From a virus (taxonomy: Duplodnaviria > Heunggongvirae > Uroviricota > Caudoviricetes), in IMG/VR virus record IMGVR_UViG_3300029852_000006: a stretch of 64,000 bases of DNA; one strand, 5' to 3'. Shown piece after piece: positions 3,938 to 45,085 of this stretch. The position numbers and the translations under genes are program-made. The notes under the pieces were generated by a model. The model searched no databases. It had not been told where the DNA came from and saw only the letters and a program-made list of their open reading frames with translations. How positions within the stretch are numbered: position 1 is the first letter of the stretch; the number at the start of each line of letters is the position of its first letter.

Positions 3938-4165
3938 ATGATTAACGTCACTATCGTCGATAACCTGCACCGCAACACCTACCCCGTTGACCCCAACACC
4001 ACCCTGCGCTCCGTCCTGGAAGCTCATGATGTCGATTACACCACCGGCCAGACCAAGCTGGATGGTTCCTCTCTGGCCGCAGGCGACCTGGATAAGACCT
4101 TCGCGGACTTCGGTATCGCGGAAAAGTGCTACATGGTCAACATTGCCAAGCAGGATAACGCCTGA
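3938..4165 (+). CDS. small protein, candidate ubiquitin-like protein (75 aa)
   Basis: 75-aa acidic protein directly upstream of a JAB + E1-like gene pair; does not end in Gly-Gly (ends ...KQDNA), so the Ubl call rests on context only. Confidence 0.35.
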   Translation: MINVTIVDNLHRNTYPVDPNTTLRSVLEAHDVDYTTGQTKLDGSSLAAGDLDKTFADFGIAEKCYMVNIAKQDNA

Positions 4166-4300: not shown

Positions 4301-5641
4301 ATGCCACTCCCCAATTACACCGATATTCTCAACACCATGTCGCCCACCATCACATGGCAGGACAACACCCCATGCCGCACCACTTTCAGAGTAATTTTCA
4401 CCAAGGCTCTGGCCTGCACGGTTTATCCCCGCCTCACCGCAGGCAAAACCCTTGCCATCCTTGGCGATGATTCCGGCCTCCAGCCTTCCACTAACCCGAA
4501 TGAATCCCTTCTGTTCTTTGTCACCGATAAAGCCGCCATCCCCGATTCCATCCAGGAAGTCAAGGATATTGGCGCTTATCTCTCTGATAAGTACAAAGTT
4601 TATCAGGATGCAGTCGCCCGTATCACCATCGTCCAGTTCCAGCGCGACGGCGACCTCTACAGCAGTGTTTTTTACCAGCGTGTTGCCTCAGCCATGCCCC
4701 GCCTGCTGCCCTGGCTCTTCAAGGATCACCCCCTCACCTCCGATGAGCTCGCTTACCTCCGCGCCCTCTCCACCCCGGATACTGGCTCGGAAACCCTCGC
4801 CCGGATGGCGGAGCCTCTTTATAACAAAACCGATCTGCCCTCCAGAGCCGTAGATAAAGCGATTGAATCCCTCTTCAAAGGTACCATTGACCGCCGTAAA
4901 GCGGATCTCAGGCGCTCTATTGAAAACCTTTACCGTCAGTTGAAAGAAACCCGCGCCCGTATCTCTGGAATTTTTACCAACATCACCAGCATCAACTGTG
5001 AGCTGACCGGCCTTGACTCCAAAGATGAATCTACCTTTATCACGGAACTCAAGGATTATCTCCACACCCAAAAAGGTATTTCCGTCGATACTGACGATGG
5101 AGCGCTTCTCCTCACCATCACCACATTCCTCTCCAACTATGACCCGGATGATGTCGAAACCTTTATCTTCAACAGTTACCACCCCTATGAGGATCTTACC
5201 GGCGAAGAAGAACACGATGTCCGCATCCTTTTCCGGGCTGTGTTCATTGACCATATCTTCAAAATCAAACTCGCTGCCACCTATAAGCTTAATTACGACT
5301 GCCATGTCACAGCCATGTCCGATGAAATCAATATGAACGTTGTTCAGGCTGTTCCCAACCCTCACATCAATCATCACTCCTGCCTCGGTAACTATGAACC
5401 CATGCTGGAGGATGCCGAGGATCGCCGAGATTTTATTGCCGCCATTGCCATCTGTCAGCAGAGCGCCAGCAGCATGAACCTCGTCGAAACTATCTCCACC
5501 AAATATTTCTTTAATGATTTTGCCACCGCCTATCACACGGATATCCCCGTCATCCTGACCGCCGCCGGTGAATCCATCACCCCCAAGCAGGCCATTGAAC
5601 AGCTCAAATCCGCAAATGATTCCGTTAAGGAAGGAGAATAA
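4301..5641 (+). CDS. hypothetical protein (446 aa); possible E2-like component
   Basis: Sits at the E2 position between candidate Ubl and JAB/E1. Segment 'PNPHINHHSCLGNYEP' loosely resembles the UBC HPN...C-L active-site region. Speculative. Confidence 0.5.
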   Translation: MPLPNYTDILNTMSPTITWQDNTPCRTTFRVIFTKALACTVYPRLTAGKTLAILGDDSGLQPSTNPNESLLFFVTDKAAIPDSIQEVKDIGAYLSDKYKVYQDAVARITIVQFQRDGDLYSSVFYQRVASAMPRLLPWLFKDHPLTSDELAYLRALSTPDTGSETLARMAEPLYNKTDLPSRAVDKAIESLFKGTIDRRKADLRRSIENLYRQLKETRARISGIFTNITSINCELTGLDSKDESTFITELKDYLHTQKGISVDTDDGALLLTITTFLSNYDPDDVETFIFNSYHPYEDLTGEEEHDVRILFRAVFIDHIFKIKLAATYKLNYDCHVTAMSDEINMNVVQAVPNPHINHHSCLGNYEPMLEDAEDRRDFIAAIAICQQSASSMNLVETISTKYFFNDFATAYHTDIPVILTAAGESITPKQAIEQLKSANDSVKEGE

Positions 5642-5643
5642 CC

Positions 5644-6408
5644 ATGCAAGTTATCCACATTGATCAGACCGCTCTGGATGCCGCCATCGAACTCTATCGC
5701 CAGCAGCTCCTCGCCGGCTCTGTTAAGCTCGCAAAAACCAAAGCAAAAGATAAAATCAACATCAATTTTACCGCCGATGCTTGGGCCAAACAGTCCCGCC
5801 TCATTGATGATTTCACTTCCGAAGTCGCCTGGCACGGCCTCATGCGCCAGCTTTCCCCCACCGAGTATGAAATCTATGATATCCTCGTCTACCCCCAGCA
5901 GGTTACTGGTGTCACCGTCGAAACCGACCAGGATAAATACAACGACTGGCTGCTCTCCCAGCCCGATGAAATCTTCAACAACATCCGCTACCAGGCCCAC
6001 AGCCACGTCAACATGTCCCCTTCCCCTTCCGGCGTTGATGACGAAAACGAGTCCAAAATTGTCAATAAGCTCAAGGGCAATGATTTCTACCTCTTCATGA
6101 TCTGGAACAAGCGCGGCGAGTTCACCGCCCGCCTGTATGACTACGCCGCCAACAAAATCTACGATAAAGATGATATCTCTGTCACCTACACCGATACCCT
6201 CTCCGATTTTGCCGCCACCGCTCAGTCCCTTGTCACCAAAGCTCTGCCCGTCTATTCCGCAGCGCACCCTCCCGTCAAGCCCACCGGCGGTACCGTGCCC
6301 CACGTCGTCTGGGATAACGCCGCCCGCTGCTGGATGGACGATGACGGCAATTATTACGACCACTACCCCACCTATTACGATTATCACACCAACGGAGGTG
6401 CCTTATGA
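5644..6408 (+). CDS. JAB/MPN (JAMM) metallopeptidase-like protein
   Basis: Exact JAMM signature H-S-H-x7-S-x2-D ('HSHVNMSPSPSGVDD') with upstream Glu. Confidence 0.7.
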   Translation: MQVIHIDQTALDAAIELYRQQLLAGSVKLAKTKAKDKININFTADAWAKQSRLIDDFTSEVAWHGLMRQLSPTEYEIYDILVYPQQVTGVTVETDQDKYNDWLLSQPDEIFNNIRYQAHSHVNMSPSPSGVDDENESKIVNKLKGNDFYLFMIWNKRGEFTARLYDYAANKIYDKDDISVTYTDTLSDFAATAQSLVTKALPVYSAAHPPVKPTGGTVPHVVWDNAARCWMDDDGNYYDHYPTYYDYHTNGGAL

Positions 6409-7088
6409 ATCTTGCCAAAAGCCTGGATGTCTTCTCCCCGCATGATGTCAAAGGCCGCATCCACATCATTGGCTGCGGTTCGGTCGGCTCCACCATCGCG
6501 GAGCTTCTTGCCCGCTATGGCCTGACCAACTTCACCCTCTACGATTTTGATACGGTGGAAAAGAAAAACATCGTCAACCAGATGTTTTTTGATCCTCAGG
6601 TCGGCCAGCCCAAAGTGGAAGCCCTCCGCGATATTCTCTGTGCCATCAACCCGGAGGCCAAAAATGATATCCGTTTGGAACCTTCCGGCTGGAACGGCCA
6701 GCCCCTCTCCGGTTACGTTTTTCTTGCCGTGGATAACATCGAGATCCGCCAGAAAATCGTGGATGCCAACCGCTTTAACACCTTCATTAAAGCCATGTTT
6801 GATGTCCGCACTGCCCTCTTTGACGCCCAGCTCTATGCCGCTGATTGGTCAGACCCCAAACAGGTCGCGGAATTTCGCGCCACAATGAACTTCACCCATG
6901 CCGAAGCCACCGCCCAGGTTCCCGTTTCGGCCTGCGGCACTACCCTCGGTGTTGCCCCCACGGTTCGCGTTGCCGCCTGTTATACCGTCACCAACTTCCA
7001 AAACTTCATCAAAAAAGGCGAGCTGATCCATACCGGTCTCTCCGCCCCCTTCAACCTCCAGGGTGAATCCGCTTTCCTCGGTCTGTAA
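6405..7088 (+). CDS. E1-like ThiF/MoeB-family adenylyltransferase
   Basis: Rossmann motif 'IIGCGSVGSTIA' (GxGxxG) followed by 'YDFDTVEKKNIVNQ' matching the ThiF/E1 D-x-D-x-V-x-x-S/K-N-x-x-R/N-Q block. Confidence 0.75.
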   Translation: MNLAKSLDVFSPHDVKGRIHIIGCGSVGSTIAELLARYGLTNFTLYDFDTVEKKNIVNQMFFDPQVGQPKVEALRDILCAINPEAKNDIRLEPSGWNGQPLSGYVFLAVDNIEIRQKIVDANRFNTFIKAMFDVRTALFDAQLYAADWSDPKQVAEFRATMNFTHAEATAQVPVSACGTTLGVAPTVRVAACYTVTNFQNFIKKGELIHTGLSAPFNLQGESAFLGL

Positions 7089-7478
7089 CCCTGTCGTCTT
7101 AGCGTTCCATTAAATTTCGTTTGTGTTGTATACTGTAAGCTTTTTCGCTTCAGGCTCTTCGGTCATATCCAAGAGTACGAATTTGTTACCCCGACCCACC
7201 CCTCCACCTGATCCTGGCCAGCGGATCTGACGGTGACGCCCGAACACATATCGCATCGTCCAAACCTTTTGACACACACCGACTGGTAGAAGAATACTAA
7301 GCCCAATCAATGAAAATTCGAAGATCAGGGTCTAATGGTAGCACAAAGTCCCATCAGAAATCAGTTCAAAAGCTCAACAGTTCAAGGGCATTCTCTTCGG
7401 AATCGGCGACGGAGTCGTTCCTGCAGCCACTATCTCCCATCAGAACACAAACATAACCCTCACATAAGGAGCACTCGT
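7089..7478 (+). ncRNA. candidate structured ncRNA upstream of the reverse transcriptase
   Basis: 390-nt ORF-free stretch in a tightly packed region. Contains the conserved hairpin motif (7155-7185) and a C-rich tract; 9-nt inverted match gtttgtgtt / aacacaaac near its two ends. Confidence 0.3.
7155..7185 (+). repeat. conserved hairpin motif copy 1 (stem ctctt/aagag, loop CGGTCATATCC, then tacGAATTTG)
   Basis: One of 7 copies sharing the loop CGGTYATAYCC closed by co-varying stems. Confidence 0.6.
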
Positions 7479-8669
7479 ATGGTTTACATCACTTATAACT
7501 GCCCGGAACGTTTCCGGGAAATGACGTTTGAAGAACTCCTCCGCGGGGATTTTAACCTCGCAAACCTTTCCACCGGCGGCCACGGTGCTACCCGTACCGT
7601 CATCTGCAACAAAGTTCCTCCCCGCATCATGCGCATCACCAAGGTGGAGCAAATGATCCTCCAGCTCCAGGCGTTCAACCAGCAGTATGAATCCCTTCGC
7701 CTCACCACTCCCCGTTCCAGCCTGTACAACCATTTCCCCATCCCCAAAGCCTCCGGCGGTCTCCGCTGGATCGATGCCCCCAATTCCGACTTAATGAAAG
7801 CCCTCAAGGAACTCAAAACCCTCTTTCAGTCCTGGATGTTTGCCGACCACCACACCTGCGCTTTCGCCTATGTCGAGGACCGCAGCGTCCTCTCCGCCGC
7901 CAAACGTCACCAAAAGTTCGGTGCCTGGTGGTTCGCCCACTTTGATTTCCATGGCTTCTTCCCCTCCACCACGCCGGAGTTTGTCCTCTCCCAGTTTGAA
8001 CTCATTTATCCTTTCAACCTCATCCTTGCCAGCCCCACCGGCCGCGCGGAACTGATCAAAGCCCTTGACCTCTGTTTCCTTAACGGAGCATTGCCGCAGG
8101 GCACCCCCATCTCCCCGCTCATCACCAACATCATGATGATCCCCTTTGACCACGCCTTCGCCAAGGCTGTCAACCATTTTGAATCCGGCAAGCATAACCC
8201 GGACGGAACCCCCATCACCGACCGCCTCTGCTACACCCGCTACGCCGATGATATCATCGTCTCCTGCAAAGTTATCTTCAATTTCCATGCTGTCGAGCGC
8301 CTTATTGTCCAGCTTCTCTCCCAAATGAACGCCCCCTTCACCCTCAATGAAAGCAAAACCCAGTTCCGCTCCCGCGCCGGCCGCAACTGGATTCTTGGCG
8401 TCATGCTCAATAAGGATAACCAAATTACAGTCGGCTACCGCAAAAATAAAATCTTCAAAGCCACCATTGATACCTACTTCCGCGATAAACAAAAGGGCAA
8501 AAAGTGGCCGGATGAAGACCTTCAGTCCTTCCAGGGCAACATTACCTGGTTCAAGGATGTCCAGCCCGATACCACCAAATACATTATCCAAAAGTATAAC
8601 GCCAAATATGGCCTTGACCTTGAATCCTGTATCAAGGCCGATCTCGCCCCGCCCAGCGTAACCGCATAA
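7479..8669 (+). CDS. reverse transcriptase (stand-alone; retron/DRT/Abi-like class undetermined)
   Basis: RT motifs 1 (IPKASGGLRWI), 2 (DFHGFFPS), 4 (LPQGTPISPLITNI), 5 (YTRYADDIIVS), 7 (LNESKT). RBS AAGGAG before ATG 7479 (six-frame ORF extends to 7335). No maturase or endonuclease domain. Confidence 0.85.
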   Translation: MVYITYNCPERFREMTFEELLRGDFNLANLSTGGHGATRTVICNKVPPRIMRITKVEQMILQLQAFNQQYESLRLTTPRSSLYNHFPIPKASGGLRWIDAPNSDLMKALKELKTLFQSWMFADHHTCAFAYVEDRSVLSAAKRHQKFGAWWFAHFDFHGFFPSTTPEFVLSQFELIYPFNLILASPTGRAELIKALDLCFLNGALPQGTPISPLITNIMMIPFDHAFAKAVNHFESGKHNPDGTPITDRLCYTRYADDIIVSCKVIFNFHAVERLIVQLLSQMNAPFTLNESKTQFRSRAGRNWILGVMLNKDNQITVGYRKNKIFKATIDTYFRDKQKGKKWPDEDLQSFQGNITWFKDVQPDTTKYIIQKYNAKYGLDLESCIKADLAPPSVTA

Positions 8670-8740
8670 TCCAAAAAAAAATCAATTTGTTTTCAAAGGT
8701 AAAGTTTCGTTTTGATTTTATTTCAAGTCAAAGCCAAACA

Positions 8741-8771
8741 CCCTCCGGTTATATCCGAGGGTTTGAATTTG
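8741..8771 (+). repeat. conserved hairpin motif copy 2 (stem ccctc/gaggg)
   Basis: Compensatory stem change relative to copy 1, identical loop family, followed by tttGAATTTG. Confidence 0.6.
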
Positions 8772-9231
8772 TCCCCCTGTCCCACCCCCTGGCCAGGACT
8801 CACTCACGTCGCAGCAGCGACTGCATCGAGTCATCGTACTCCCAGACACACGATGGGTCGCCCCACAGCGCATCAGAAAGGGCGGGCCAATGCCCCAGTC
8901 TTTAACAAAATAAGCGAGCAACATCGGAGGCCGCCCCAATCAAACTCAGAAGATCAGTCATCACCACCATCCGATTCCGGTGGCTGCCTCTCATCAGCTT
9001 TCACAAATTGATTTTTATTTTCTCCATTCCGCCCCATGGTTCCGGGGCATTCCCAGGCGCTTCAGTTGTTTCTTCTTTTCTTAGCAGCTCGTTGCGCCCC
9101 CTGTTCGTGCGCCTGGTAAACGCACGGTCATGGTTTTACTTTCCTTTCGCTGGGCCTCCGGCCATCCCAATGGTTGGAGCGCCTGGTAATACCCCGGAAC
9201 CCGCCCACAACAATGAATTCAGGTGATTTTT

Positions 9232-9522
9232 ATGAAACTTATCTCCCCCGGCTCACGGGTCAAATTCTTTACCGTAGGACCAGTTATCAGCCCGGATCAC
9301 AACCCCCTGAAAACTAAATTTCAAATCATCTATCTCTCCGGCACCGTCCAAGAAGATATCGGCAACTGCGTCATCGTCTGGACCGATGATTCCCGCACCT
9401 TCCACGTCCCTCATGGATACATCACCGAAATCCAGGACCCCAACGATCCTTTCACTTATAAGTCTCCCAATACCGTACCTTCCCCAACCGTTTCTTTTGA
9501 TGAAATTATTTCCGCCCTCTAA
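9232..9522 (+). CDS. SFD-L-tail family small protein, paralog 1/13
   Basis: RBS AGGTGA; C-terminus ...VSFDEIISAL. Confidence 0.55.
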   Translation: MKLISPGSRVKFFTVGPVISPDHNPLKTKFQIIYLSGTVQEDIGNCVIVWTDDSRTFHVPHGYITEIQDPNDPFTYKSPNTVPSPTVSFDEIISAL

Positions 9523-9540
9523 TTCATACAGGTGATTCTT

Positions 9541-9804
9541 ATGGACCCTTATTACATTCAACCCGGCACTCCCGTCTATTTTGAAATCAGAACGCTACAT
9601 GGCATAGCCCGTCGTACCCTCCACGGCTTTGTCCAATCTGATACTGGCGCTTATGTCACCGTTATTGTCCCCAGTATGAATAACAAAACATTTATCGCCA
9701 CCCATTCCGCCTTTACTTATGACGATACCCCCGAAGCCGTCACCCCCGCTCCTCTCCCCACTCCTTCCATCTCTTTTGATGAACTTATTTTTCAAGGCAG
9801 GTGA
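9541..9804 (+). CDS. SFD-L-tail family small protein, paralog 2/13
   Basis: RBS AGGTGA; C-terminus ...ISFDELIFQGR. Confidence 0.55.
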   Translation: MDPYYIQPGTPVYFEIRTLHGIARRTLHGFVQSDTGAYVTVIVPSMNNKTFIATHSAFTYDDTPEAVTPAPLPTPSISFDELIFQGR

Positions 9805-9810
9805 TTCCCC

Positions 9811-10107
9811 ATGACCCCCTTCCTCCCCGGCTATGAACCTGGCACCTGGGTCGAGATCGTCTCCGCTCCGGAAATGCTCTGCTCCCTCCAGTATGATTAC
9901 GGCACCACTTTCACCCTCACCGATTCTCTCCCCTATGATCCTATCCTCGGCAAGCAGGGCAAGATCGTTGCCATCCTCGGCAAATCCGGCCTTCTCCGCC
10001 TCTATTTTCCTCACAGCGATTCCTACCACATCATCCCGCCCAGCATGATCTCCCGCACTATCCCCGCTCCGTATCCCAGCTTTGATTCTCTTATCGCAAA
10101 CCTCTAA
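9811..10107 (+). CDS. SFD-L-tail family small protein, paralog 3/13
   Basis: RBS AGGTGA; C-terminus ...PSFDSLIANL. Confidence 0.55.
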   Translation: MTPFLPGYEPGTWVEIVSAPEMLCSLQYDYGTTFTLTDSLPYDPILGKQGKIVAILGKSGLLRLYFPHSDSYHIIPPSMISRTIPAPYPSFDSLIANL

Positions 10108-10133
10108 CCCCCATCACAGAAAGGAAGCCTACC

Positions 10134-10490
10134 ATGAATCCCACCTATAAAGTTGGTGATGTTGTCCAAATCATCTCCGAAGAAGAAGTTCGTTCCCATC
10201 CTACGGATGATTGCGGCAATTTTATTCTTATTCCTTCTATTTACGGCGCAAACGATTCTTTTCACAGAGATAAACTTCCTGTTTGCGGCTGTCCGGCTGT
10301 TATTACCCGCATTTCCAAAGGCAATGAAAGGAACCTATACGATCTCACCCCTCTCTTCGCTGAAGATAGAACCGTTTTTAACTGGAATGACTGGTTTTTC
10401 TCCGCCGCTGAATTTCACCCTCGTGTCGTTTCTCCGCCCCCGGTTCCTTCCATGTCCTTCGATGATCTTCTGAAAGGAGCTGCGCAATGA
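10134..10490 (+). CDS. SFDDLLKG-family small protein, paralog 4/13
   Basis: C-terminus ...MSFDDLLKGAAQ; stop overlaps next start (ATGA). Confidence 0.6.
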   Translation: MNPTYKVGDVVQIISEEEVRSHPTDDCGNFILIPSIYGANDSFHRDKLPVCGCPAVITRISKGNERNLYDLTPLFAEDRTVFNWNDWFFSAAEFHPRVVSPPPVPSMSFDDLLKGAAQ

Positions 10491-10855
10491 ATTTCCCCAC
10501 CTACCCCGTTGGCACCCTCGTTCAAATCATTTCTGACGCAGAGTTTGACGCTCTTCCCAAAAATGATGCTGGCTGTGCGCTGTTTCTCGATCCCCTTCCT
10601 AATGGTAACGCAGATTATATACCCCCTAAACGCCGTTCTCTTTGTGGCAGCATCATGCAAATTGATCGTAAACTTGACGCTTCTGGTTTTTACTTCTTAA
10701 AACCCTACGATCTCTCCACCGCTGTCGATCCCTCCGCAGCTGCCAAATTCTCTTGGAACTCCGCTCTTTTCTCCCCCAATGAATTCCACCCCTATGGTAC
10801 CCCGGTTCCCGTTTCCCCTGTTTCCTTTGACGATTTCCTGAAAGGAGGCATTTGA
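10487..10855 (+). CDS. SFDDLLKG-family small protein, paralog 5/13
   Basis: C-terminus ...VSFDDFLKGGI. Confidence 0.6.
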   Translation: MNFPTYPVGTLVQIISDAEFDALPKNDAGCALFLDPLPNGNADYIPPKRRSLCGSIMQIDRKLDASGFYFLKPYDLSTAVDPSAAAKFSWNSALFSPNEFHPYGTPVPVSPVSFDDFLKGGI

Positions 10856-11239
10856 ATGCCAGCCCCCTACCCCACCTACCACGTCGGTGATCGCGTCATC
10901 GTCCGCCAGTGGGATGATATGATGGAAGAATTCGGCTCCAATCCTTACGGTGATATCACTGTTCATCCCAATAAACTTTCTTTTATTCTTGACATGAAAC
11001 CTTACTGTGGCAAAGAGTTTATTGTTGTCAAAATCGTTCATGATAAAGATCTTCCTGATGAACCCATTTATTTTCTCAATTATTCACCGGATGTTTATGT
11101 AGACCTTAATGATGGTGATTCTCCTCGCGGTTGGTTTTTCACCTCTGCCATGCTTCTCCCCGCAACTCTCCCCAATGAACCCCAAAACCGTATTCCCACC
11201 CCTTCTCTCACCTTCGATGATTTACTTCAAGGAGTCTAA
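10856..11239 (+). CDS. SFDDLLKG-family small protein, paralog 6/13
   Basis: N-terminal 'YPTYHVGDRVIVRQWDDMMEEFG' module; C-terminus ...LTFDDLLQGV. Confidence 0.6.
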   Translation: MPAPYPTYHVGDRVIVRQWDDMMEEFGSNPYGDITVHPNKLSFILDMKPYCGKEFIVVKIVHDKDLPDEPIYFLNYSPDVYVDLNDGDSPRGWFFTSAMLLPATLPNEPQNRIPTPSLTFDDLLQGV

Positions 11240-11244
11240 TAACC

Positions 11245-11601
11245 ATGGATACTACCTTTAACCCCAATGACTATCCTACCTACCAAATTGGCGATCGAGT
11301 TACCATTCGCCAATGGGACGATATGAAGTCAGAATTTGGTTTGAACAGATTTGGTGACATTAAAGTCCCAAAAGCTTGTTTCACAGAGCCTATGAGAAAA
11401 TATTGCGGGAAGACACTCACCATTGTCCGTAAAAACCACCATCTATCTCCGAATTCTGATTGTTACTATTTCGACGGTAGCACAATGGTTTTTACTTCCC
11501 TCATGTTTGAACAATCTTATCCCACAGTTGTCTCCTCCACTCTCTCCTTTGATGATTTGTTGAAAGGAATTACCTCTCAACTGGCAAATCCCCAAGCATA
11601 A
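11245..11601 (+). CDS. SFDDLLKG-family small protein, paralog 7/13
   Basis: N-terminal 'YPTYQIGDRVTIRQWDDMKSEFG'; C-terminus ...LSFDDLLKGITSQLANPQA. Confidence 0.6.
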   Translation: MDTTFNPNDYPTYQIGDRVTIRQWDDMKSEFGLNRFGDIKVPKACFTEPMRKYCGKTLTIVRKNHHLSPNSDCYYFDGSTMVFTSLMFEQSYPTVVSSTLSFDDLLKGITSQLANPQA

Positions 11602-11730
11602 ATACCACGGCGCTTCCATGGCCGATTTTGCCAGCCACACCCCGCCGTGTCCCAACGATCAACCTCAAAAATAAAACAGCTTAACAAGGTAAAGAATCAT
11701 TTGCTGATTATATTTTCAGTTCATGCTTCA

Positions 11731-11762
11731 CTCTTCGGTTATATCCAAGAGTTCGAATTTGT
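11731..11762 (+). repeat. conserved hairpin motif copy 3 (stem ctctt/aagag)
   Basis: First 35 nt nearly identical to copy 1, then diverges into a C-rich tract. Confidence 0.6.
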
Positions 11763-11980
11763 TACCGCCTCCCCCTCCTGGATCGCAGGCGCCTGCTGCA
11801 GACTGAGCGCCTCATCGCGCGCTCGCGATGACACCAAAAGACCCACCACAGAGCCAAAATAAGCGATAACACGTCATGCGCAAGACAAACTTTTGATCCA
11901 CCCCAAAAAGACCGTTTCCCACCAGCTTGTTCCCTGTTTTATTTTGAATCTATTTTTACCATCAGAAAGGATCAACCATT

Positions 11981-14969: not shown

Positions 14970-15362
14970 ATGACCTTCCAAGACCTCTACCTCGGCCAGC
15001 GCGTCCGCATCCTCTCCTGGGATGAACTCAATCACACCGGCTATCATGATAGTGCCTATGGTATTTACTTGCCGGACAACTCATTCTTTAATAACGGAAT
15101 GAAATACCTCTGCGGTGCCACTCTCACCATCGTAAAAGAACCTTCCTATTCTGACAGCGATGAAGATTATCTTTCTCCCGATATCTTCCAGTTCGATGAT
15201 CCTCTTCTCTCTTTCTCTCGTTCTTATGGCGCCGCCTTCCCTACAATCCGCCACTGGTCCCTATCACCCGCCATGCTCGCCCCTCTTAACGAATCCTCTC
15301 CCGTCATTCCTCCCGCCATCTCTTTTGACCAACTCCTTGCCGGAGGTGAACTCCCTCAATGA
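14970..15362 (+). CDS. SFDDLLKG-family small protein, paralog 8/13
   Basis: C-terminus ...ISFDQLLAGGELPQ; RBS GAGGTGA. Confidence 0.6.
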   Translation: MTFQDLYLGQRVRILSWDELNHTGYHDSAYGIYLPDNSFFNNGMKYLCGATLTIVKEPSYSDSDEDYLSPDIFQFDDPLLSFSRSYGAAFPTIRHWSLSPAMLAPLNESSPVIPPAISFDQLLAGGELPQ

Positions 15363-15694
15363 AACCTCTTAACCCTGCCGATTATCCTACCTACAACGTC
15401 GGAGATAAAGTTACCATCCGTCAGTGGGATGATATGGAATCCGAATTTGGTTTGGACGAATATGGTGGAATCAAAGTCCCAAAAACTTTCACAAAGTTTA
15501 TGAAAAAATATTGCGGACAAACACTTTCCATTGTTCATGTAAACCGCTATCCATCTCCAAAATTTGATTCTTATTTTTTCGACGGTACTTCCGTGGTTTT
15601 TTCTTCCCCTATGTTTGAACAATCCAAACTCCAATCCGTTCCGCCCTCTTCTCTCTCTTTTGATTCTCTTCTCCAAGGTGGTGACTTCTTTTGA
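15359..15694 (+). CDS. SFDDLLKG-family small protein, paralog 9/13
   Basis: 'YPTYNVGDKVTIRQWDDMESEFG'; C-terminus ...LSFDSLLQGGDFF. Confidence 0.6.
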   Translation: MKPLNPADYPTYNVGDKVTIRQWDDMESEFGLDEYGGIKVPKTFTKFMKKYCGQTLSIVHVNRYPSPKFDSYFFDGTSVVFSSPMFEQSKLQSVPPSSLSFDSLLQGGDFF

Positions 15695-16098
15695 TCCCCG
15701 AAACAACCGATCTTTTTTACCCCACCATCCTTCCTAACCAAGAAATTCTCTTTCCCTCCTTCGCTCAATGTAAAGCTCTCTATGATGATTTTCGCCAAAG
15801 CTCTGATCTACGTAAACAATCCGTCGCTCCCTATATGAACTTATCAGCTCGGTTTCATTTCGGTTTCTGTCCTGTTTCTGACGTTACTGCCGTTTCCCGC
15901 GGTGATTTTGATTCCCCTCAAATCGTTACCGCCACAGGTATCTGCAATCAAAATTTCTTTCAGTTCACCACCCAGGATGGCAAAATGTATTACGCTTCAA
16001 AAATTTATGCCGCCTACCAATCTCTTATGGAATCCTCCCCCGTGCCTACTCCTCCCCCTTCCGTTTCCTTTGATGATTTACTTCAAGGTGGTGCTTAA
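15691..16098 (+). CDS. SFDDLLKG-family small protein, paralog 10/13 (TTG start)
   Basis: C-terminus ...VSFDDLLQGGA. Confidence 0.5.
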   Translation: MIPETTDLFYPTILPNQEILFPSFAQCKALYDDFRQSSDLRKQSVAPYMNLSARFHFGFCPVSDVTAVSRGDFDSPQIVTATGICNQNFFQFTTQDGKMYYASKIYAAYQSLMESSPVPTPPPSVSFDDLLQGGA

Positions 16099-16101
16099 CC
16101 T

Positions 16102-16419
16102 ATGCCGTCTTACCCTCACAGATTTCAGCCTGGCGATACGGTCACAATCCGCGCCTGGGATGATATGCTCTCTCAATATGGCAGCTTCAGCGGTGAATTA
16201 GGAATTAAAACCCCTTATATAATCTTTAGCGATAGTATGAAACAGTATTGCGGTCGCTCTTTCAAAGTCAAACATGTCTGGCCATCCATTAACGATAAAT
16301 ATTGGATTTATAAATTGGACTGCTGCTATTTCCCTTTTACTGAAGACATGTTCGTTTTTGCCCCACCTGTTCCTGCTTCTACCATTTCTTTCGACGATCT
16401 TATGAAAGGAGCCACATAA
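16102..16419 (+). CDS. SFDDLLKG-family small protein, paralog 11/13
   Basis: 'GDTVTIRAWDDMLSQYG'; C-terminus ...ISFDDLMKGAT. Confidence 0.6.
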   Translation: MPSYPHRFQPGDTVTIRAWDDMLSQYGSFSGELGIKTPYIIFSDSMKQYCGRSFKVKHVWPSINDKYWIYKLDCCYFPFTEDMFVFAPPVPASTISFDDLMKGAT

Positions 16420-16715
16420 TGAGTTCGTATTTTCCTCAAGTCGGTGATTTTGTTATGATCCGCCCCTGGGATGATATGGTAAAAGAGTTTGGCACTGATT
16501 CCTATGGGGATATCCCAACGCTTCCTGCCGCCATCTTTCAAAGTATGAAACAATATTGCGGTCATTTCTACACTGTTGAACGTGTAACCACTACCGCTGT
16601 TGGCTCCTGGTGCTCTTTTGCGGATGTAAACTATGATTTTCCTGTCTGTTCTCTTGTGTTGCCCGTCTTTGAATCCTCTCTCACCTTTGATGATCTTATG
16701 AAAGGAGCTTCCTAA
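16419..16715 (+). CDS. SFDDLLKG-family small protein, paralog 12/13
   Basis: 'GDFVMIRPWDDMVKEFG'; C-terminus ...LTFDDLMKGAS. Confidence 0.6.
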   Translation: MSSYFPQVGDFVMIRPWDDMVKEFGTDSYGDIPTLPAAIFQSMKQYCGHFYTVERVTTTAVGSWCSFADVNYDFPVCSLVLPVFESSLTFDDLMKGAS

Positions 16716-17050
16716 TGAATTTTAACCCTCGGCCCGGTGATACCGTCACCATCCGTACATGGGATGACATGGCAGAAGAATACGGTTTGAATGAAAGTGG
16801 TGGAATTAAAACTCCGTATATCACCATTTTGCAAGGTATGAAACAATTCTGCGGCTACTCTTACATTGTGAAAGATGTTTACAATACATCTGATAGACGA
16901 ATGTATTCTTTTTACGGTTTCCATTATATCTTCCCTATCTGTGCTCTTGCCAGTTATTCTCCCTCCCTGCAGTCCATTCCCATCCCGCAGTCCATTCCCA
17001 TTTCCTCCATCTCTTTTGATTCCCTCATCCAGCCTCTCACCACCCCCTGA
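16715..17050 (+). CDS. SFDDLLKG-family small protein, paralog 13/13
   Basis: 'GDTVTIRTWDDMAEEYG'; C-terminus ...ISFDSLIQPLTTP. Confidence 0.6.
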   Translation: MNFNPRPGDTVTIRTWDDMAEEYGLNESGGIKTPYITILQGMKQFCGYSYIVKDVYNTSDRRMYSFYGFHYIFPICALASYSPSLQSIPIPQSIPISSISFDSLIQPLTTP

Positions 17051-17063
17051 AAGGACCGCCCCA

Positions 17064-17504
17064 ATGAAACAATTTTTCCAAACTGACCCGGACACCCGCC
17101 AGTTCTGCCGTGCGCTCTCTCCCACTACATACCAGTTCACTGATATCGTTCCTTTTCACTCCAAATCGGCTTCTCCTAACCGCAATTATTATGCCGTTGC
17201 CGCCGAAACGATCGACCTCTCTGCCTATACCATTCGCCAGCTGGAACAAGCCGTTGAACCTTATTACTGTTCTCTGCGCGGTCTTGTTGCCGCCTATGGT
17301 TCTGATACCACCTTGCCGGAAATTCTGCAAATCATCGCGGAATGTGTCTTTGAAAACATCGAAACCCCAAAACTTGTTTCCCCCGCTGCTGATTATCCCC
17401 GTGTTGTCTCCTACCAACGCCAGTGGATCTCCCGTCAGGAATCTACCCCCGGCCTTCCCAAAACGATGTTCAAATCCCTTACCGATTCCGCCGCCGCATC
17501 TTAA
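17064..17504 (+). CDS. hypothetical protein
   Basis: RBS GAAAGGAC before ATG 17064 (six-frame ORF extends upstream). Confidence 0.45.
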   Translation: MKQFFQTDPDTRQFCRALSPTTYQFTDIVPFHSKSASPNRNYYAVAAETIDLSAYTIRQLEQAVEPYYCSLRGLVAAYGSDTTLPEILQIIAECVFENIETPKLVSPAADYPRVVSYQRQWISRQESTPGLPKTMFKSLTDSAAAS

Positions 17505-20150: not shown

Positions 20151-20367
20151 GGGTATTTGCAAAAATAGGTGGTTTGAATAAAACCATCTGTTTTTACAAA
20201 TACCACAGGCATTTGGATGTTTGTTGCGCCTATCGATTTTCCCAGTTGATAGCTCCGCACGAGTGGCATTGTCTCGTACAATACCGCTCACAGCAAACAC
20301 CCAGCCAAGGGAAACACAACCTCCTGTTTCAGCAGGAGAGACTTACAGTAAAAGGAGGGTAGCGTAT
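20151..20367 (+). ncRNA. candidate omega-RNA of IscB-1
   Basis: Conserved position of the guide/scaffold RNA immediately 5' of iscB; inferred from family knowledge, not folded here. Confidence 0.35.
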
Positions 20368-21906
20368 ATGCCTACTGTATATGTGTTAAACAAAGATGGT
20401 AAACCTTTGATGCCAACGACTCGCTGTATGCATGTGCGCCATCTCCTTAAGAATGGAAAAGCACGAGTCGTAAAATCAAAACCGTTTACTATCCAGTTGC
20501 TTTATGAAACTGATGATGTAGTTCAACCCCTATATTTGGGTATCGACCCTGGTAGGACCAACATCGGCGTTGCCGTTGTCAAAGCAGACGGGGCGGCGGT
20601 CTTTACTGCGCATCTTGAGACCCGCAATAAGGAAGTCCCTAAGCTGATGAAAAAGCGTAAGGAATCACGCTGCGCAAGACGCACCAACGGCAGACGCTGC
20701 CGCCGTCAGCGGAGAGCAAAAACCAACGGCACTATTTCTAAGAAGTGCGTAAAGCAAACCACTGCTCAAAATGGTAGTGTTAGTAAACGTGCAAAAGAAA
20801 TTGGCGTTATCAAGCGCCATCTTCCGGGTTGTGAGAAAGATGTACTTTGCATTGGTATCAAAAACAAAGAGGCAAAGTTCACCAATCGTGCAAGACCGGA
20901 AGGATGGCTTACGCCTACTGCAAATCAGTTGCTACAGACACACATCAACTTGGTGAAGAAAATTCAGAAGTTTCTTCCTATCAGTGATGTTGTGCTTGAA
21001 GTCAACAAATTTGCGTTCATGCAGCTTGACAACCCTAACATTCAGAAATGGCAGTATCAGCAAGGCCCACTCTACCAAAAAGGGAGCCTTGAAAATGCTG
21101 TTTCTGAAATGCAGGAACACCATTGCCTATTTTGTGAGAAGCCCATTGAACATTACCATCATGTAGTACCAAAATCCGAAAACGGTAGCAACACTATCGC
21201 CAATATTGTTGGTCTATGCACGGAGCATCACAATCTCGTTCATAAGGATGCTACCTGGCAAAAGAAACTCGCCAAAGAAAAAGTCGGACTCGTCAAAAAG
21301 TACAGTGCTTTGAGCGTATTGAATCAAATCATTCCGGCATTGACGAAAGAGATGAATTCTCTTTTTCCGAAGCATTTCTTTGTGACCAATGGTAAAAGTA
21401 CCTACGACTATCGTACAGCGCACGGTGTGAGTAAAGACCATTGGCTTGATGCTTATTGCATTGCCTGTTCTGTTTTACCCAACGATGTTTGTGATAGCAA
21501 TATAAACAGCCATGTGCCATACGAATTAAAGCAGTTCCGCCGCCATGATAGAAGAGTGCTACACAAAGCGAACATGAGCCGCGTGTACACACTCAATGGC
21601 AAAACAGTGGCAACGAATCGCCACAAGGCTATTAAACAGACTACCGACAGTTTGGAAGAGTTTCGTCAAAGCCATCCAGGTGATGTTTGCAAGCTCAAGG
21701 TGAAAGAGCATCATCCTGCATATAGAAACTTGAACCGTAACTATCCAGGAAGTGTATTTCTTGTTGACGGGCAAGTTCATGTGATGCAAGGAGTTAGCGG
21801 CTCACATAATGGCAAAGCAGATGGATATTACAATACGAATGGCAACGCATATCCATATTATAAATGTAAATTTGTTGTCAAAAACGAAGGAATTGTATTT
21901 GCATAA
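20368..21906 (+). CDS. iscB: IscB (OMEGA RNA-guided nuclease, Cas9 ancestor)
   Basis: N-terminal PLMP motif (GKPLMPT), RuvC-I 'LGIDPGRTNIGVAVV', HNH 'CLFCEKPIEHYHHVVPKSENGSNTIANIVGLCTEHH', RuvC-III 'HWLDAYCIA'. RBS AAAGGAGGG before ATG 20368. Confidence 0.8.
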   Translation: MPTVYVLNKDGKPLMPTTRCMHVRHLLKNGKARVVKSKPFTIQLLYETDDVVQPLYLGIDPGRTNIGVAVVKADGAAVFTAHLETRNKEVPKLMKKRKESRCARRTNGRRCRRQRRAKTNGTISKKCVKQTTAQNGSVSKRAKEIGVIKRHLPGCEKDVLCIGIKNKEAKFTNRARPEGWLTPTANQLLQTHINLVKKIQKFLPISDVVLEVNKFAFMQLDNPNIQKWQYQQGPLYQKGSLENAVSEMQEHHCLFCEKPIEHYHHVVPKSENGSNTIANIVGLCTEHHNLVHKDATWQKKLAKEKVGLVKKYSALSVLNQIIPALTKEMNSLFPKHFFVTNGKSTYDYRTAHGVSKDHWLDAYCIACSVLPNDVCDSNINSHVPYELKQFRRHDRRVLHKANMSRVYTLNGKTVATNRHKAIKQTTDSLEEFRQSHPGDVCKLKVKEHHPAYRNLNRNYPGSVFLVDGQVHVMQGVSGSHNGKADGYYNTNGNAYPYYKCKFVVKNEGIVFA

Positions 21907-27578: not shown

Positions 27579-27670
27579 CAACAGAATAACTTCATTTTGG
27601 TTTCACACCGTAAAGTCCCGTCACACCGGCGCGGCCGTGGATTGGCGGCACCGGGTAGCAAACGGCTCCA

Positions 27671-27693
27671 CACCTCGGTCATATCCAGTGGTC
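27671..27693 (+). repeat. conserved hairpin motif, partial copy (loop CGGTCATATCC)
   Basis: Loop conserved; lacks the GAATTTG tail. Confidence 0.4.
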
Positions 27694-27857
27694 AGCGGCT
27701 TTTTCGAAGTTCTTGCTTCCATTCAGTTCAAACAGTTTGTCGAGCTGTCTGCGGCTGAAAATGTTCTGTTCGTATTTCCAAATGAACTGCGAAAAGCTTA
27801 TGCCCTCTTTGTTATCAAACGCAAGCCACTTGTCGTAAATGGCGTTGTTACAATTTT

Positions 27858-27890
27858 CCTGTGACTGCGTATATCCAGGTGTTTGAATTT
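27858..27890 (+). repeat. conserved hairpin motif copy 4 (...gcgTATATCCaggtgtttGAATTTG)
   Basis: Shares ATATCC loop core and GAATTTG tail; ~85 nt upstream of tRNA-Thr. Confidence 0.5.
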
Positions 27891-27973
27891 GAATCTATGT
27901 ACCCGTCACCAGTACAAATATATGTACCATATCGCGGGGTGTCGTCTCCATCATGAATTTATTCTGTTATTAT

Positions 27974-28050: not shown

Positions 28051-28835
28051 CCGTTCCGGTTCATACCGGGGCGTCATGGCTCCCAGCGCCGGTCAAGTCT
28101 GGGGTACGCGGAGGGCAATCTCTCCGTCAAATCAGTGGGTGAAATAAACTCGCTGGACGCTTTATTCTGGTCTAACCCCCAGATGCTAAAGCAATGGCAG
28201 AGCAGCGGCACACTGCCTCAAAACTATTCCGTTGGCACCTTCGGGCAGGTAACAGTCCACCTTGCCGGGTTCAAAGCCGTCTTTACGGCAGTCTTAACAC
28301 GCAGCACCCAGCATGAAACCGATCGGCAGAACTTTTGGTCAGCTTCCAAACATCTTTCTGGCCAATGACAAGATGGGAAAGTCCTCCGGGCTGCGGCGAG
28401 TAATAAGCAGCGGTAAGTACCTATCGACATATGGTGAGACGGCTAAGCACGTCACTGGTACCTCAAGGGTGGGATGCCCTTTCACACGGAGCAATACTCA
28501 AGCTGGTTTAAGAGGCGTCCCTGCTAAGGACGTAGCCAACAACCCCGCCTAAACCGGTCCTCCGGTTATAGATGGGATTTACGGGGAAACTCGTAAGTCC
28601 GGTTGGTTAGCCTAAGTCTGCTGCTCCGGCAACAGGAAACTACGTTGTGTACCAATAATATAGGCACCTTACTCATGCTCCACAAGTGGTAAGCTCTGCG
28701 GACGGCTCGTTAAACATCTCTGAGGGTAGGAGAAGTGCGAACGTCATGTCGAAAGGCTAAAACGGTATAACAACATTGGCGATGTGGACCACAGGGCGCA
28801 AGCCCTGACTTATTGATTTATTATTTACGAAAGGG
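28051..28835 (+). ncRNA. long ORF-free structured region between tRNA-Thr and iscB; expected location of the IscB-2 omega-RNA
   Basis: 785 nt with only short ORFs, GC-rich with many local hairpins; IscB omega-RNAs are encoded immediately 5' of iscB (family knowledge). Confidence 0.35.
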
Positions 28836-30242
28836 GTGCCTTGCATGAGCACTTGTGCTTGTGTTTTCAGTAAAAGCGGCAAACGCCTGATGCCGACCAT
28901 CCGTCTTGGCAAGGTGCGCCATCTTCTGAAAGACGGAAAGGCAAAAATTATTAAGCATCATCCGTTTACCATCCAGTTGCTGTATGACAGCGAAACGAAT
29001 ATTCAACCCATCGAAATCTGCGAGGATGTGGGTTACAACTACATTGGCATCAGCGTGAAAAGCCAATCTCACGAATATGTGTCTGTACAATATGATACAT
29101 TGCAGGATGAGAAAGACTGCCACGATAGTTGTCGTAAGATGCGCCGCATCCGTAGAAACAGGTTACGTTACCGCAAGCCGCGTTTCGACAATCGTAAGCG
29201 TAATAAAGGTTGGCTTGCGCCCTCTCTTGAACATAAGAAAGAACTCAATGTTAATGTCATCAAGATGTATTGCAAGGTAGTTCCTATTACGCATGTAACT
29301 GTTGAAGTTGGTTCTTTCGACACAATGCTTGTAAAAGCCATCCAAGAGGGTAAAGCTATACCGGAAGGCGCAGATTATCAAAAAGGCCCTCGCTACAATT
29401 TGGCCACACTACGTGAAGCGGTTTTTTATCGCGATAAATATACCTGCCAAGTTTGCGGGCGCAAGGCTAATGAAGGTGCAATTCTGCATGTGCATCACAT
29501 GTTCTACTGGAAGGGTCGTCACGGCAATAGTCTCAGCGAACTTCTTACTGTGTGTGAAAAATGCCATACACCGGCTAACCACCAACAAGGCGGCAAGCTC
29601 TACAGATTTGGTGAAAATATAAAGTTCGCCAATCTTTCCGGTGCGGCATTTATGAATACTGTGCGCTGGCAAATCGTCAATGAACTTTACACTGCTTTTG
29701 GCAAGCTGTTCGTCACATTCACTTATGGTGCGATGACCAAGGAAAAGCGGATTGCCTTTCATCTTGAAAAGTGTCATAACAACGATGCGTATGCAATGGG
29801 GAACTTTCATCCAGTTGACCGCTGCGCGTTTGAACATTATAAAAAGGTGAAACGCAATAACCGCATTCTCGAAAAATTTCATGACTCCCAGTACATTGAC
29901 ATCCGCACCGGCAAAGTGGCTAACGGCAGAAGCCTCTTTAACGGTAGAATCAACCGCAGCCATAAAAAGAATTCCGAGAACCTGCACAAGTATCGTGGGA
30001 AAAGGACTCGTAAAGGCTACCGTGCTCTACGCCGCAAAAAGGTAGCCCTCAATCCCGGTGACTTGGTTTCTCTTAACGGAGAAATTCTTGTTGTCCATAG
30101 CACTCATGCCGGAAAGAATGGTTATGTAGGCGTAGAATTCAAAGCTCCATCAAAAAGCGGCAAAAAGTCTGCCAGTCTCAAAAAACTAAAAATTGTTAAA
30201 ACATCAAACTCCATGCGCTCTGCGTGGACTAAAGTATCTTAA
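28836..30242 (+). CDS. iscB: IscB (OMEGA RNA-guided nuclease), second copy
   Basis: PLMP-like 'GKRLMPT', RuvC-I-like 'DVGYNYIGISV', HNH 'CQVCGRK...HVHHMFYWKGRHGN...CEKCH', RuvC-III 'HNNDAYAMGNF'; basic C-terminus. Confidence 0.8.
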   Translation: MPCMSTCACVFSKSGKRLMPTIRLGKVRHLLKDGKAKIIKHHPFTIQLLYDSETNIQPIEICEDVGYNYIGISVKSQSHEYVSVQYDTLQDEKDCHDSCRKMRRIRRNRLRYRKPRFDNRKRNKGWLAPSLEHKKELNVNVIKMYCKVVPITHVTVEVGSFDTMLVKAIQEGKAIPEGADYQKGPRYNLATLREAVFYRDKYTCQVCGRKANEGAILHVHHMFYWKGRHGNSLSELLTVCEKCHTPANHQQGGKLYRFGENIKFANLSGAAFMNTVRWQIVNELYTAFGKLFVTFTYGAMTKEKRIAFHLEKCHNNDAYAMGNFHPVDRCAFEHYKKVKRNNRILEKFHDSQYIDIRTGKVANGRSLFNGRINRSHKKNSENLHKYRGKRTRKGYRALRRKKVALNPGDLVSLNGEILVVHSTHAGKNGYVGVEFKAPSKSGKKSASLKKLKIVKTSNSMRSAWTKVS

Positions 30243-30429: not shown

Positions 30430-30580
30430 GCCTTACGGACTTGCCGTAAGGGATTGAAACCGTTTTTTGACGGTTTATCGGTGATAACATAAAAACCACC
30501 GTTTCGGTATGGCAGCACCGATCAATGGCCAAACCTGCCACCCAATCATCCCGCTGGTAAAACCGTGCTCTAGCACCGCA

Positions 30581-30602
30581 CTCCGGTCATATCCGAGCGC
30601 TT
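30581..30602 (+). repeat. conserved hairpin motif, partial copy (stem ctc/gag, loop CGGTCATATCC)
   Basis: Loop identical to copies 1/5. Confidence 0.4.
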
Positions 30603-30755
30603 ATCCAAGTCGGCTGGGTTCTGTGATAGACAATCACTTCAACTGCGGTGGGATGATTTTTTTTCTTTGGTGTCTCGCCTTTCACGGCGTTTCATATTCC
30701 CGGCAAAGTCCCTGGTACCTACAGGCACCGCCTTCACGGCCTGCCCCGCATACCG

Positions 30756-30786
30756 CTTCCCGGTCATACCCGGAAGATTGAATTTC
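30756..30786 (+). repeat. conserved hairpin motif copy 5 (stem cttcc/ggaag, loop CGGTCATACCC, then attGAATTTc)
   Basis: Compensatory stem; sits 6 nt upstream of the start of gene 30792. Confidence 0.55.
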
Positions 30787-30791
30787 CTAAG

Positions 30792-44685: not shown

Positions 44686-44744
44686 TTTTTTTCTGGTTAT
44701 GGCGGTTCTCAATACTGCCATCAGTGTTATTGCCACTATTTTCG

Positions 44745-44880
44745 GTAACGTCACCAAAAGTTCGATGTTTGGTGATACGCCCATTTTGATTTCCACGGCT
44801 TCTTCCCCTCCCAGTTTGAACTCATCTATCCCTTCAACCTCATTCTCGCCTGGCCGGTGGAACGGTTCAAAGCCCTCAAC
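44745..44880 (+). pseudogene. degenerate fragment homologous to an internal part of the RT gene (RT 7903-8070)
   Basis: ~85% nt identity incl. 'aacgtcaccaaaagttcg' and 'ttgatttccacggcttcttcccctcc...cagtttgaactcat.tatcc.ttcaacctcat'. In-frame 24-nt deletion relative to RT gives HFDFHGFFPS-QFELIYPFNLILA; no complete ORF. Confidence 0.5.
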
Positions 44881-45085
44881 CAATGACAATCGGTTTTTTT
44901 TATCTCGTGATGCCTTGTACAAACTCTATCTCACAGCCATCGTTTTCAGCTTGTTTTGGTGGTTCCTCTCCTAAGGGGGTGATGTTATCGAACCAGTCTT
45001 TGTTAAATCCGCCCTTGAAACTTTTACTATCCTGATTGATACCCGTGAGCACGAAACCTCGGCGCTCACTCAACGCATTCAGCAA

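Follow-up and report, generated by a model that had tools for sequence, protein, structure and literature searches.

We analysed a 64,000-nucleotide (nt) stretch of DNA (hereafter the window) from a virus of the Caudoviricetes, IMG/VR record IMGVR_UViG_3300029852_000006, and our data suggest that the reverse transcriptase (RT) gene at 7479-8669 probably belongs to a phage-borne, retron-like reverse-transcription module in which a single RT serves several templates. An earlier interpretation made from the letters of the window (the sequence-only reading) had presented this gene as a stand-alone RT with one structured non-coding RNA (ncRNA) leader. More than 3000 homologues of the RT were found, many of them on contigs of 90-225 kb, and the 79 RT loci in IMG/VR fall into identity tiers of 98, 62, 42-47 and 37-40%, which are referred to by these values below.

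Units with retron-like anatomy flank the RT gene

Neighbouring genes in this region abut or overlap, and the two flanks of the RT gene (7089-7478 and 8670-9222) contain short overlapping open reading frames (ORFs) only, in agreement with the sequence-only reading, which had also noticed a hairpin motif in both flanks. This hairpin was found at 7155-7175 and 8741-8761, followed each time by GAATTTG. It consists of a variable 5-bp stem around CGGTYATATCC, then three bases and the GAATTTG motif. The window has seven copies of it, all on the + strand and five of which are exact, a count that no shuffle attained; the other copies are at 11731-11751, 27671, 27861, 30579 and 30756. Where one ncRNA had been counted, three or four units are present (Table 1). 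The flank units are 280-350 nt long, each comprising a closing helix between a 5' arm (a1) and a 3' arm (a2), two covarying stem-loops, the linear motif and a variable stretch. They end 20-45 nt before a ribosome-binding site (RBS) or before the next unit, with a2 about 25 nt 5' of the next start codon (26 nt 5' of the RT ATG in unit 1). The closing repeat of unit 2 is an 18-nt inverted repeat, 94% complementary, with an exact run of 14 nt.

Retron ncRNAs are characterised by complementary ends, a conserved G that acts as primer, short msr stem-loops and an msd upstream of the RT (PMC8632793). The pairing of the unit ends was evaluated in 26 units from 13 loci, anchored independently of pairing on the base before an invariant G and on the base after ..AG. 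The first eight a1/a2 positions were paired in 97.6% of cells, compared with 64.7 +/- 2.6% when partners were shuffled (maximum 76% in 2000 shuffles), and between two and seven kinds of pair, canonical or G-U, were seen at each of the eight positions. The longest exactly complementary run had a mean length of 9.15 nt when the 5' flank of a unit was matched with its own 3' flank and of 6.51 nt with non-partner flanks (p = 8e-13). Two other measures were less informative: RNAduplex over wide windows discriminated poorly (p = 0.04), with chance G+C-rich duplexes dominating, and a gap-free pairing count that allowed G-U had too high a background. The base directly 3' of a1 was G in all 26 anchored units, and its position next to a1 suggests that this G could prime by its 2'-OH. 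The a2 arm forms the 3' end of each unit and is conserved, reading ..TAG and then ATTACA in most lineages and ..ATCAG and then AACACAAAC in the window. Other lineages have an 8-bp stem of lineage-specific sequence followed by AAGTAACAAYTTG, and the 62% tier counterpart of the a1 of unit 1 is TGTTTGTGAT, with ATCACAAACA as its partner. Together, these results support the view that the flank units are built as predicted retron ncRNAs.

The hairpin lies downstream of a1, with 36-50 nt between the end of a1 and its own 3' end. Given this order and the covariation of a1 with a2, transcription must begin upstream of a1, and the hairpin is therefore an RNA element and not a promoter; scans for sigma-70 promoters and for terminators gave results at chance level. 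The stem of stem-loop 2 covaries within and between lineages, with double compensatory changes in six of six RNAalifold pairs, and stem-loop 1, located between the G and the conserved hairpin, has a different sequence in every unit and pairs in all of them. Structure is thus confined to part of what had been called a structured leader: the description holds for the first ~85 nt and the closing helix of unit 1, but the core of ~230 nt is hypervariable, and for the segment between the motif and the ATG the minimum free energy (MFE) z-score averaged about 0 over 29 alleles, with no RNAalifold consensus structure.

The units accompany the RT across lineages. Stem-loop 2 and the motif lie 238-304 nt 5' of the RT ATG in 12 of the 14 loci scanned, with downstream copies 53-113 nt past the RT stop in seven loci and 366-465 nt past it in six. 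Tandem units with no ORF between them occur at loci L080 and L040 (d1-d2 in each). An atypical fourth unit in the window fills the gap between the tRNA-Gly and tRNA-Thr genes: its ends form an inverted repeat of 21 nt (27580-27600 and 27948-27968, 86% complementary), and it encloses the stem-loop 2 copies at 27671 and 27861, the latter followed by GAATTTG, and has no G directly after a1. It mirrors the 37% tier, in which a compact a1/a2 element is found between two tRNAs just 3' of the RT. As the 21-nt repeat directly adjoins the tRNA on either side, the unit may be excised by tRNA-processing enzymes. Two non-coding gaps of ~360-390 nt in the window, 27580-27968 and 30430-30791, adjoin tRNA genes and hold two stem-loop 2 hairpins each.

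The RT is retron-like

The long ORF of the RT spans 7335-8669, and its conserved start is the ATG at 7479, with AAGGAG just 5' of it, giving a protein of 396 amino acids (aa) whose N-terminus, M-V/I-Y-I-T, is common to the RTs of all homologous loci. The full set of catalytic motifs claimed in the sequence-only reading could be located (FPIPKASGGLR, DFHGFFPS, QGTPISP and YADD), and profile searches found no maturase or endonuclease feature and none of the Avd type known from diversity-generating retroelements (DGRs) in the protein, which carries an N-terminal extension of ~70 aa specific to this RT family. Pfam RVT_1 matched with an E-value of 7.5e-15. In the PADLOC ranking retron RT_II-A came top (6.8e-44), followed by RT_I-A and RT_III-A; the top NCBIfam match was retron_St85_RT with 168.6 bits, and all 13 PDB sequence matches were retron RTs (best E 4.5e-17). 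On the other hand, NCBIfam group_II_RT_mat (TIGR04416) scored 56 bits against a cut-off of 300 and Rfam gave neither an intron nor any other relevant match at E <= 5, so that it is not the RT of a group II intron; grouping with such RTs together with an intron structure was the outcome that would have overturned the earlier interpretation. That interpretation had left the choice between a retron and a defence-associated RT (DRT) open, and its first half stands, as a retron-type RT with ncRNAs in cis in both flanks on a predicted phage, while the DRT2/UG class falls away, Drt2 (NF041746) reaching 38.6 bits where its cut-off is 390.

Hypervariable stretches within the units

Our main comparison set consisted of 24 genomes, the window and 23 IMG/VR loci, with RTs 96-98% identical; a narrower alignment of ±1.5 kb included 31 genomes. 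Genes and the structured parts of the units showed 93-99% identity per column in the comparison set, and the stretches after the motif in units 1, 2 and 3 (hereafter HV1, HV2 and HV3) were far lower, HV1 having 30 distinct sequences in 31 genomes. The mean pairwise differences in HV1, HV2 and HV3 were 0.37, 0.31 and 0.27, respectively, compared with 0.088 at 635 four-fold sites of four neighbouring genes; the divergence is about 4-5 times that of the four-fold sites, or 3-4 times on raw values. The spectrum also differs. Among close alleles (pairs no more than 12% divergent, realigned pairwise) the transition fractions were 0.44, 0.57 and 0.56, respectively, against 0.83 at the four-fold sites, where C<->T alone accounts for 0.77, so that transversions make up about 50% of changes in the hypervariable stretches and 17% at four-fold sites. 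A Kimura two-parameter estimate indicates that the genomic spectrum, taken to 37% divergence, would still give a transition fraction of about 0.76. The edges of the stretches are sharp, the four bases vary about equally (majority fractions of 0.69-0.83 per base) and rare variants are strand-symmetric. HV1, HV2 and HV3 have no similarity to one another, and, apart from a single 20-nt match of marginal significance (E 0.003), the rest of the window contained nothing similar to them.

In each of the three units the alleles reassort without regard to the other units or to the flanks, with correlations of 0.09-0.52, and they group into families; genomes L016 and L030, for instance, differ by 1.1% in the flanks and by 51% in HV2. 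The closest non-identical pair, L029 and L032, shows six isolated substitutions in 554 hypervariable positions, distributed over all three units, and outside of them five isolated substitutions in ~10.8 kb plus one tract of 15 changes in a paralogous gene. The spectrum and the closest pair make us lean towards a local mutational process, and the allele families and their reassortment show that exchange occurs as well. Hypervariability recurs in the 62% tier and in one unit of the L080 lineage, and is mild in the 37% tier.

Loci L080-L082, which were chosen for their identical RT protein, are 99-100% identical with few isolated differences over a 269-aa ORF through unit 1, the RT and unit 2 (6900-9500), whereas their flanks differ by 3-7% and the next unit by 12-27%; the switch is abrupt, and the choice of loci by RT identity biases this pattern.

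The + strand of the whole window is strongly C-rich, with a GC skew of -0.1 to -0.39 almost throughout, and this skew together with the 77% C<->T among four-fold substitutions points to a strand-specific mutational bias or to base modification.

A predicted ubiquitin-like conjugation operon as constant neighbour

The gene context shows that the RT is not stand-alone. It is preceded by an operon with a ubiquitin-like (Ubl) candidate, an E2-like candidate (protein X), a JAB protease and an E1-like protein, and homologues of X, JAB and E1 were found 5' of the RT, in the same order, in 84 of the 85 loci with enough upstream sequence. The sole exception, L092, has leucine-rich repeat and Ros/MucR genes upstream instead, and an ncRNA unit still lies beside its RT.

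The 75-aa product of the first gene is 59-61% identical between lineages whose RTs are just 47% identical, with a conserved C-terminus (..KADNA) that has an extra GNDV tail in one lineage. It had no family match in PHROG, NCBIfam or PADLOC scans, and its single-sequence AlphaFold2 model is weak (pLDDT 53), with a b-b-a-b-a-b order that would fit a beta-grasp fold. Protein X, which had no Pfam, PHROG, NCBIfam or PDB sequence match, has two alpha/beta domains separated by a coiled coil of 45 residues and evolves much faster than its neighbours, as its closest database homologues are at most 89% identical compared with 98-99% for the RT. The JAB product matches the PADLOC JAB models of the cyclic-oligonucleotide-based anti-phage signalling system (CBASS; E 8e-4), and the E1-like protein matches the PADLOC CBASS E1-E2 models (E 1.3e-17) as well as the NCBIfam ThiF and 6A-MBL cap2_3 families. 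The genes of BilA, BilB, BilC and BilD encode a Ubl, an E2-like protein, a JAB and an E1 in that order (10.1101/2023.09.04.556158), and both the E1 and the JAB by which a BilABCD-type operon is recognised are present here as predicted proteins.

The module is surrounded by early-type and replication genes. Matches in genome collections were restricted to contigs, among them one of 141.6 kb, from metagenome-assembled genomes that had been binned to Lachnospiraceae, Clostridia and Oscillospiraceae, and database searches found no cultured or annotated phage relatives.

Table 1. Positions in the window of the RT module, the adjoining operon and other elements
Feature	Position	Strand	Basis or details
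Ubl candidate, 75 aa, first operon gene	3938-4165	+	conservation, weak fold model
Protein X, 446 aa, E2/RWD-like candidate, fast evolving	4301-5641	+	no Pfam, PHROG, NCBIfam or PDB match
JAB/JAMM metalloprotease	5644-6408	+	invariant E..HSHVNMx3PSxVD fits E...HxHx7Sx2D
E1-like ThiF adenylyltransferase, 227 aa	6405-7088	+	Pfam ThiF E 2e-22
Unit 1	7119-7452	+	5' of RT
Unit 1, a1 arm, GTTTGTGTT	7119-7127	+	pairs with 7444-7452
Unit 1, G directly 3' of a1, candidate branching/priming G	7128	+	predicted priming
Unit 1, stem-loop 1, CTGTAAGC/GCTTCAG	7133-7153	+	sequence variable, pairing kept
Unit 1, stem-loop 2 (7155-7175), GAATTTG (7179-7185), C-rich tract	7155-7202	+	covarying stem
Unit 1, msd-like stretch HV1	7203-7431	+	allele comparison
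Unit 1, conserved 3' end, ..CCCATCAG, then a2 AACACAAAC at 7444-7452	7432-7452	+	conservation, a1 pairing
Retron-type RT, 396 aa	7479-8669	+	intact frame, motifs, profile matches
Unit 2	8673-9020	+	a1 8673-8690; stem-loop 2 8741-8761; GAATTTG 8765-8771; HV2 8790-8982; a2 9003-9020
Separate structured element, 164 nt, 26-bp closing helix, two pyrimidine tracts (TTTCTTCYTTTCTT)	9038-9201	+	conservation, MFE z-score -3.9
Unit 3	11667-11946	+	a1 11667-11679; stem-loop 2 11731-11751; GAATTTG 11755-11761; HV3 ~11780-11930; a2 11934-11946
Atypical fourth unit	27580-27968	+	fills gap tRNA-Gly to tRNA-Thr
Decayed second RT gene fragment	44747-44876	+	~88% identical to 7903-8035; stop codons, 24-nt and smaller deletions

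Proposed mechanism and alternative explanations

In a module of this kind the units would be transcribed from the + strand and the RT would bind stem-loop 2 and the motif, both conserved, while the a1/a2 helix would bring the candidate priming G (position 7128 in unit 1) with its 2'-OH next to the template. The RT could then copy leftwards from ~7443 to ~7203, that is from just 5' of a2 to the C-rich tract, and the product would be a branched, RNA-linked cDNA of ~240 nt; the same RT would serve the remaining units in trans. The predicted copied stretch coincides with the hypervariable stretch, which could reflect either a diversifying pressure on the cDNA sequence itself or its rewriting via error-prone reverse transcription. 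As a partner or effector of the RT module, the Bil/CBASS-type operon is the foremost candidate. Given the constancy of this operon, the fast evolution of X and of the templates, and the setting among early-type and replication genes, our guess is a role in phage-host or phage-phage conflict, be it the exclusion of competitors or counter-defence.

Several observations weigh against a retron-like module. The 168.6 bits of the RT for retron_St85_RT are below the family cut-off of 235. In the HMMER alignments NAxxH, reportedly described as a retron RT motif by Mestre et al. in 2020, is replaced by AAKRH or DAxKRH, and the position of VTG, the retron signature in RT motif 7 (PMC8632793), reads ILG in the window RT and NLG in most relatives. 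Since its best PADLOC, NCBIfam and PDB matches are all retrons, but the score is below cut-off and both signatures deviate, the RT is therefore best classified from its sequence as retron-like yet on a branch of its own. As for the ncRNAs, no G immediately follows the outer a1 in units 2 and 3 of the window, no long msd hairpin was found in the variable stretch, and the folding energy of its 29 alleles is not in excess. Retron ncRNAs are usually about half as long as these units of 280-350 nt. Stem-loop 2 and the motif also occur far from the RT, at 27861 and 30756, and units 2 and 3 precede other genes, in the case of unit 3 an anti-repressor-like gene, so that they could have a purely regulatory role as leaders.

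Indeed, the units could be regulatory or processing leaders of early operons, either nut/put-like sites of antitermination or cassettes that RNase III or tRNA-processing enzymes excise, in which case the RT would have its template elsewhere or none at all. Leaders would be expected to stop short of an RBS or of the next unit, as every unit does, and to be followed by genes other than the RT, as units 2 and 3 are; tRNAs flank some of the a1/a2 elements, and stem-loop 2 with the motif but without recognisable a1/a2 is found just 5' of a gene (30756) and 5' of a tRNA (27861). We nevertheless consider such leaders improbable, since a processing stem needs neither an invariant G at the helix edge nor ..AG before a2, both of which are retron hallmarks. 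They would also leave the tandem units without ORFs at L080 and L040 unexplained, as well as the tight clustering of units at the RT in every lineage and their retention in L092, and neither a substitution rate higher than the synonymous one nor a different mutation spectrum would be accounted for by a leader role. Even less can be said for a DGR, a group II intron or a DRT2/UG-type single-gene system, and we would be very surprised if the module turned out to be one of them: an RT beside hypervariable DNA is reminiscent of the first and an RT with an upstream ncRNA of ~300 nt of the last, but their defining features fail and we exclude these identities. The near-equal variation of the four bases and its strand symmetry rule out adenine mutagenesis of the DGR type, there is no pair of template and variable repeats within the window, and the variable DNA is non-coding; for group II introns and DRT2, the profile scores far below their cut-offs and the Rfam result given above speak against both.

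As regards the variation itself, ordinary cassettes are one possible explanation of the hypervariable stretches: recombination between co-circulating phages, together with balancing selection, would keep them diverse, and the RT would not be involved in the variation. RNA-based immunity or exclusion specificities such as c4 of P1/P7 and the CI RNA of P4 are examples. This is a possibility that we take seriously without favouring it. The independent reassortment, as in L016 and L030, and the allele families are as expected of cassettes, whose exchange would be favoured by the conserved flanks, and the anti-repressor-like gene after unit 3 also counts in their favour. However, the transition fraction is low even in close alleles, while ordinary divergence would keep it near the four-fold value, the closest pair shows isolated point changes in three stretches instead of tracts, and HV1, HV2 and HV3 resemble neither each other nor the remaining window. 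We put forward more tentatively, and think it rather unlikely, that the stretches are written by the RT of the retron-like module itself, error-laden cDNA recombining back at its own locus in the replicating phage genome. Such self-directed retro-conversion would continuously diversify a non-coding template, and would do so without adenine bias or a separate template repeat. This scenario would fit the sharp-edged overlap with the predicted copied stretch, a divergence several times that of the four-fold sites, the flat, transversion-rich spectrum against a background dominated by C<->T, and the isolated point changes across the three units of the closest pair. Engineered retron cDNA, in so-called recombitrons, is reportedly able to edit phage genomes; no single-strand annealing protein was identified among ten large ORFs scanned. 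If true, RT-written hypervariability would be a second natural RT-driven generator of diversity, mechanistically distinct from the first.

Comparison with known systems

The closest known retrons are those of the St85/Ec86 type (II-A) and of the Ec78/Ec83 type (I-A). The module resembles them in RT sequence class and in ncRNAs whose ends are complementary and whose 5' arm is edged by a G, with short 5' stem-loops and an a2 just 5' of the RT gene; the operon alongside the RT is a candidate accessory operon. It differs in being a conserved part of a phage genome of ~140 kb and not of a bacterial island, in having three or four ncRNA units per RT, in the size of these units and their lack of a long msd hairpin, in an RT without VTG and without the N of NAxxH, and in a template stretch that is hypervariable between near-identical genomes. 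To our knowledge, a Ubl-conjugation set is not among the known retron effector types. The phiR73 retronphage and P4-type elements are likewise phage-like elements with a retron, which in their case is the cargo of a small satellite prophage, whereas the present module is conserved in large phages across RT lineages down to 37% identity.

The operon shares its gene order with BilABCD and its E1 and JAB matches with Cap2 and Cap3 of type II CBASS, and differs from both in being phage-encoded and fixed beside an RT, in an E1 of just 227 aa, and in a candidate Ubl of one domain that ends in ..DNA, with Ala in place of Gly; the Ubl of BilABCD has two fused ubiquitin domains ending in Gly (10.1101/2023.09.04.556158). 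With DGRs, the module has in common an RT in phages adjoining DNA that varies much faster than its surroundings and with sharp edges, but it lacks adenine specificity, a repeat pair and Avd, its variable DNA is non-coding, and its RT is outside the DGR clade. DRT2 (UG2) and other ncRNA-dependent defence RTs are similar in having a single RT and an upstream ncRNA of ~300 nt, which in DRT2 is the template; the window RT is of another clade, its a1/a2-plus-G anatomy is retron-like and there are several units.

Literature searches gave no description of an RT with ThiF/JAB, of a retron with ThiF, of a hypervariable msd, or of phage-encoded retrons or retrons as fixed parts of large phages, and the combination of an RT, multiple retron-shaped ncRNAs with hypervariable templates and a Ubl operon is apparently undescribed. 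Retrons are familiar as defence cargo of bacteria; the present retron-like module would be a fixed part of a very abundant group of large gut phages, with several templates per enzyme and a Ubl-conjugation operon as its constant neighbour. It could serve as a natural system for the study of phage use of reverse-transcribed DNA and of local hypermutation by a non-DGR RT. The compact modular units, in which a constant 5' handle is joined to a freely variable insert of ~200 nt, are also clearly of interest for retron-based DNA production and editing.

Other elements of the window

A separate conserved structured element follows unit 2 (Table 1). Compared with the 62% tier, where its counterpart directly follows the RT stop, its helix shows four double compensatory changes and no broken pair, and with an identity of 0.991 the segment 9079-9178 is among the best conserved of the 13 kb around the RT. 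The gap that follows the gene for DNA polymerase III alpha contains the remnant of a second RT gene, and a related genome shows 96% identity over the surrounding region of 901 nt (44400-45300).

Two clusters of small paralogous genes (9223-11601 and 14970-17140; ~100-130 aa) share a WDDM core and a C-terminal SFDDLLKG; their copy number differs between near-identical genomes, and a gene-conversion-like tract is present at 11307-11361. A HEARO (omega) RNA at 28535-28794 reaches the Rfam gathering score and is followed by an IscB-like HNH protein (28836-30242), with a second IscB-like ORF 8 kb upstream (20221-21906). Finally, four 22-nt tandem repeats (CGAGTTTCTTTTA..) at 61460-61569 and five copies of a 25-nt motif ending in AAACTCGTAGTT, 50-121 nt apart, at 61620-61973 form an iteron-like arrangement that may be a replication origin.

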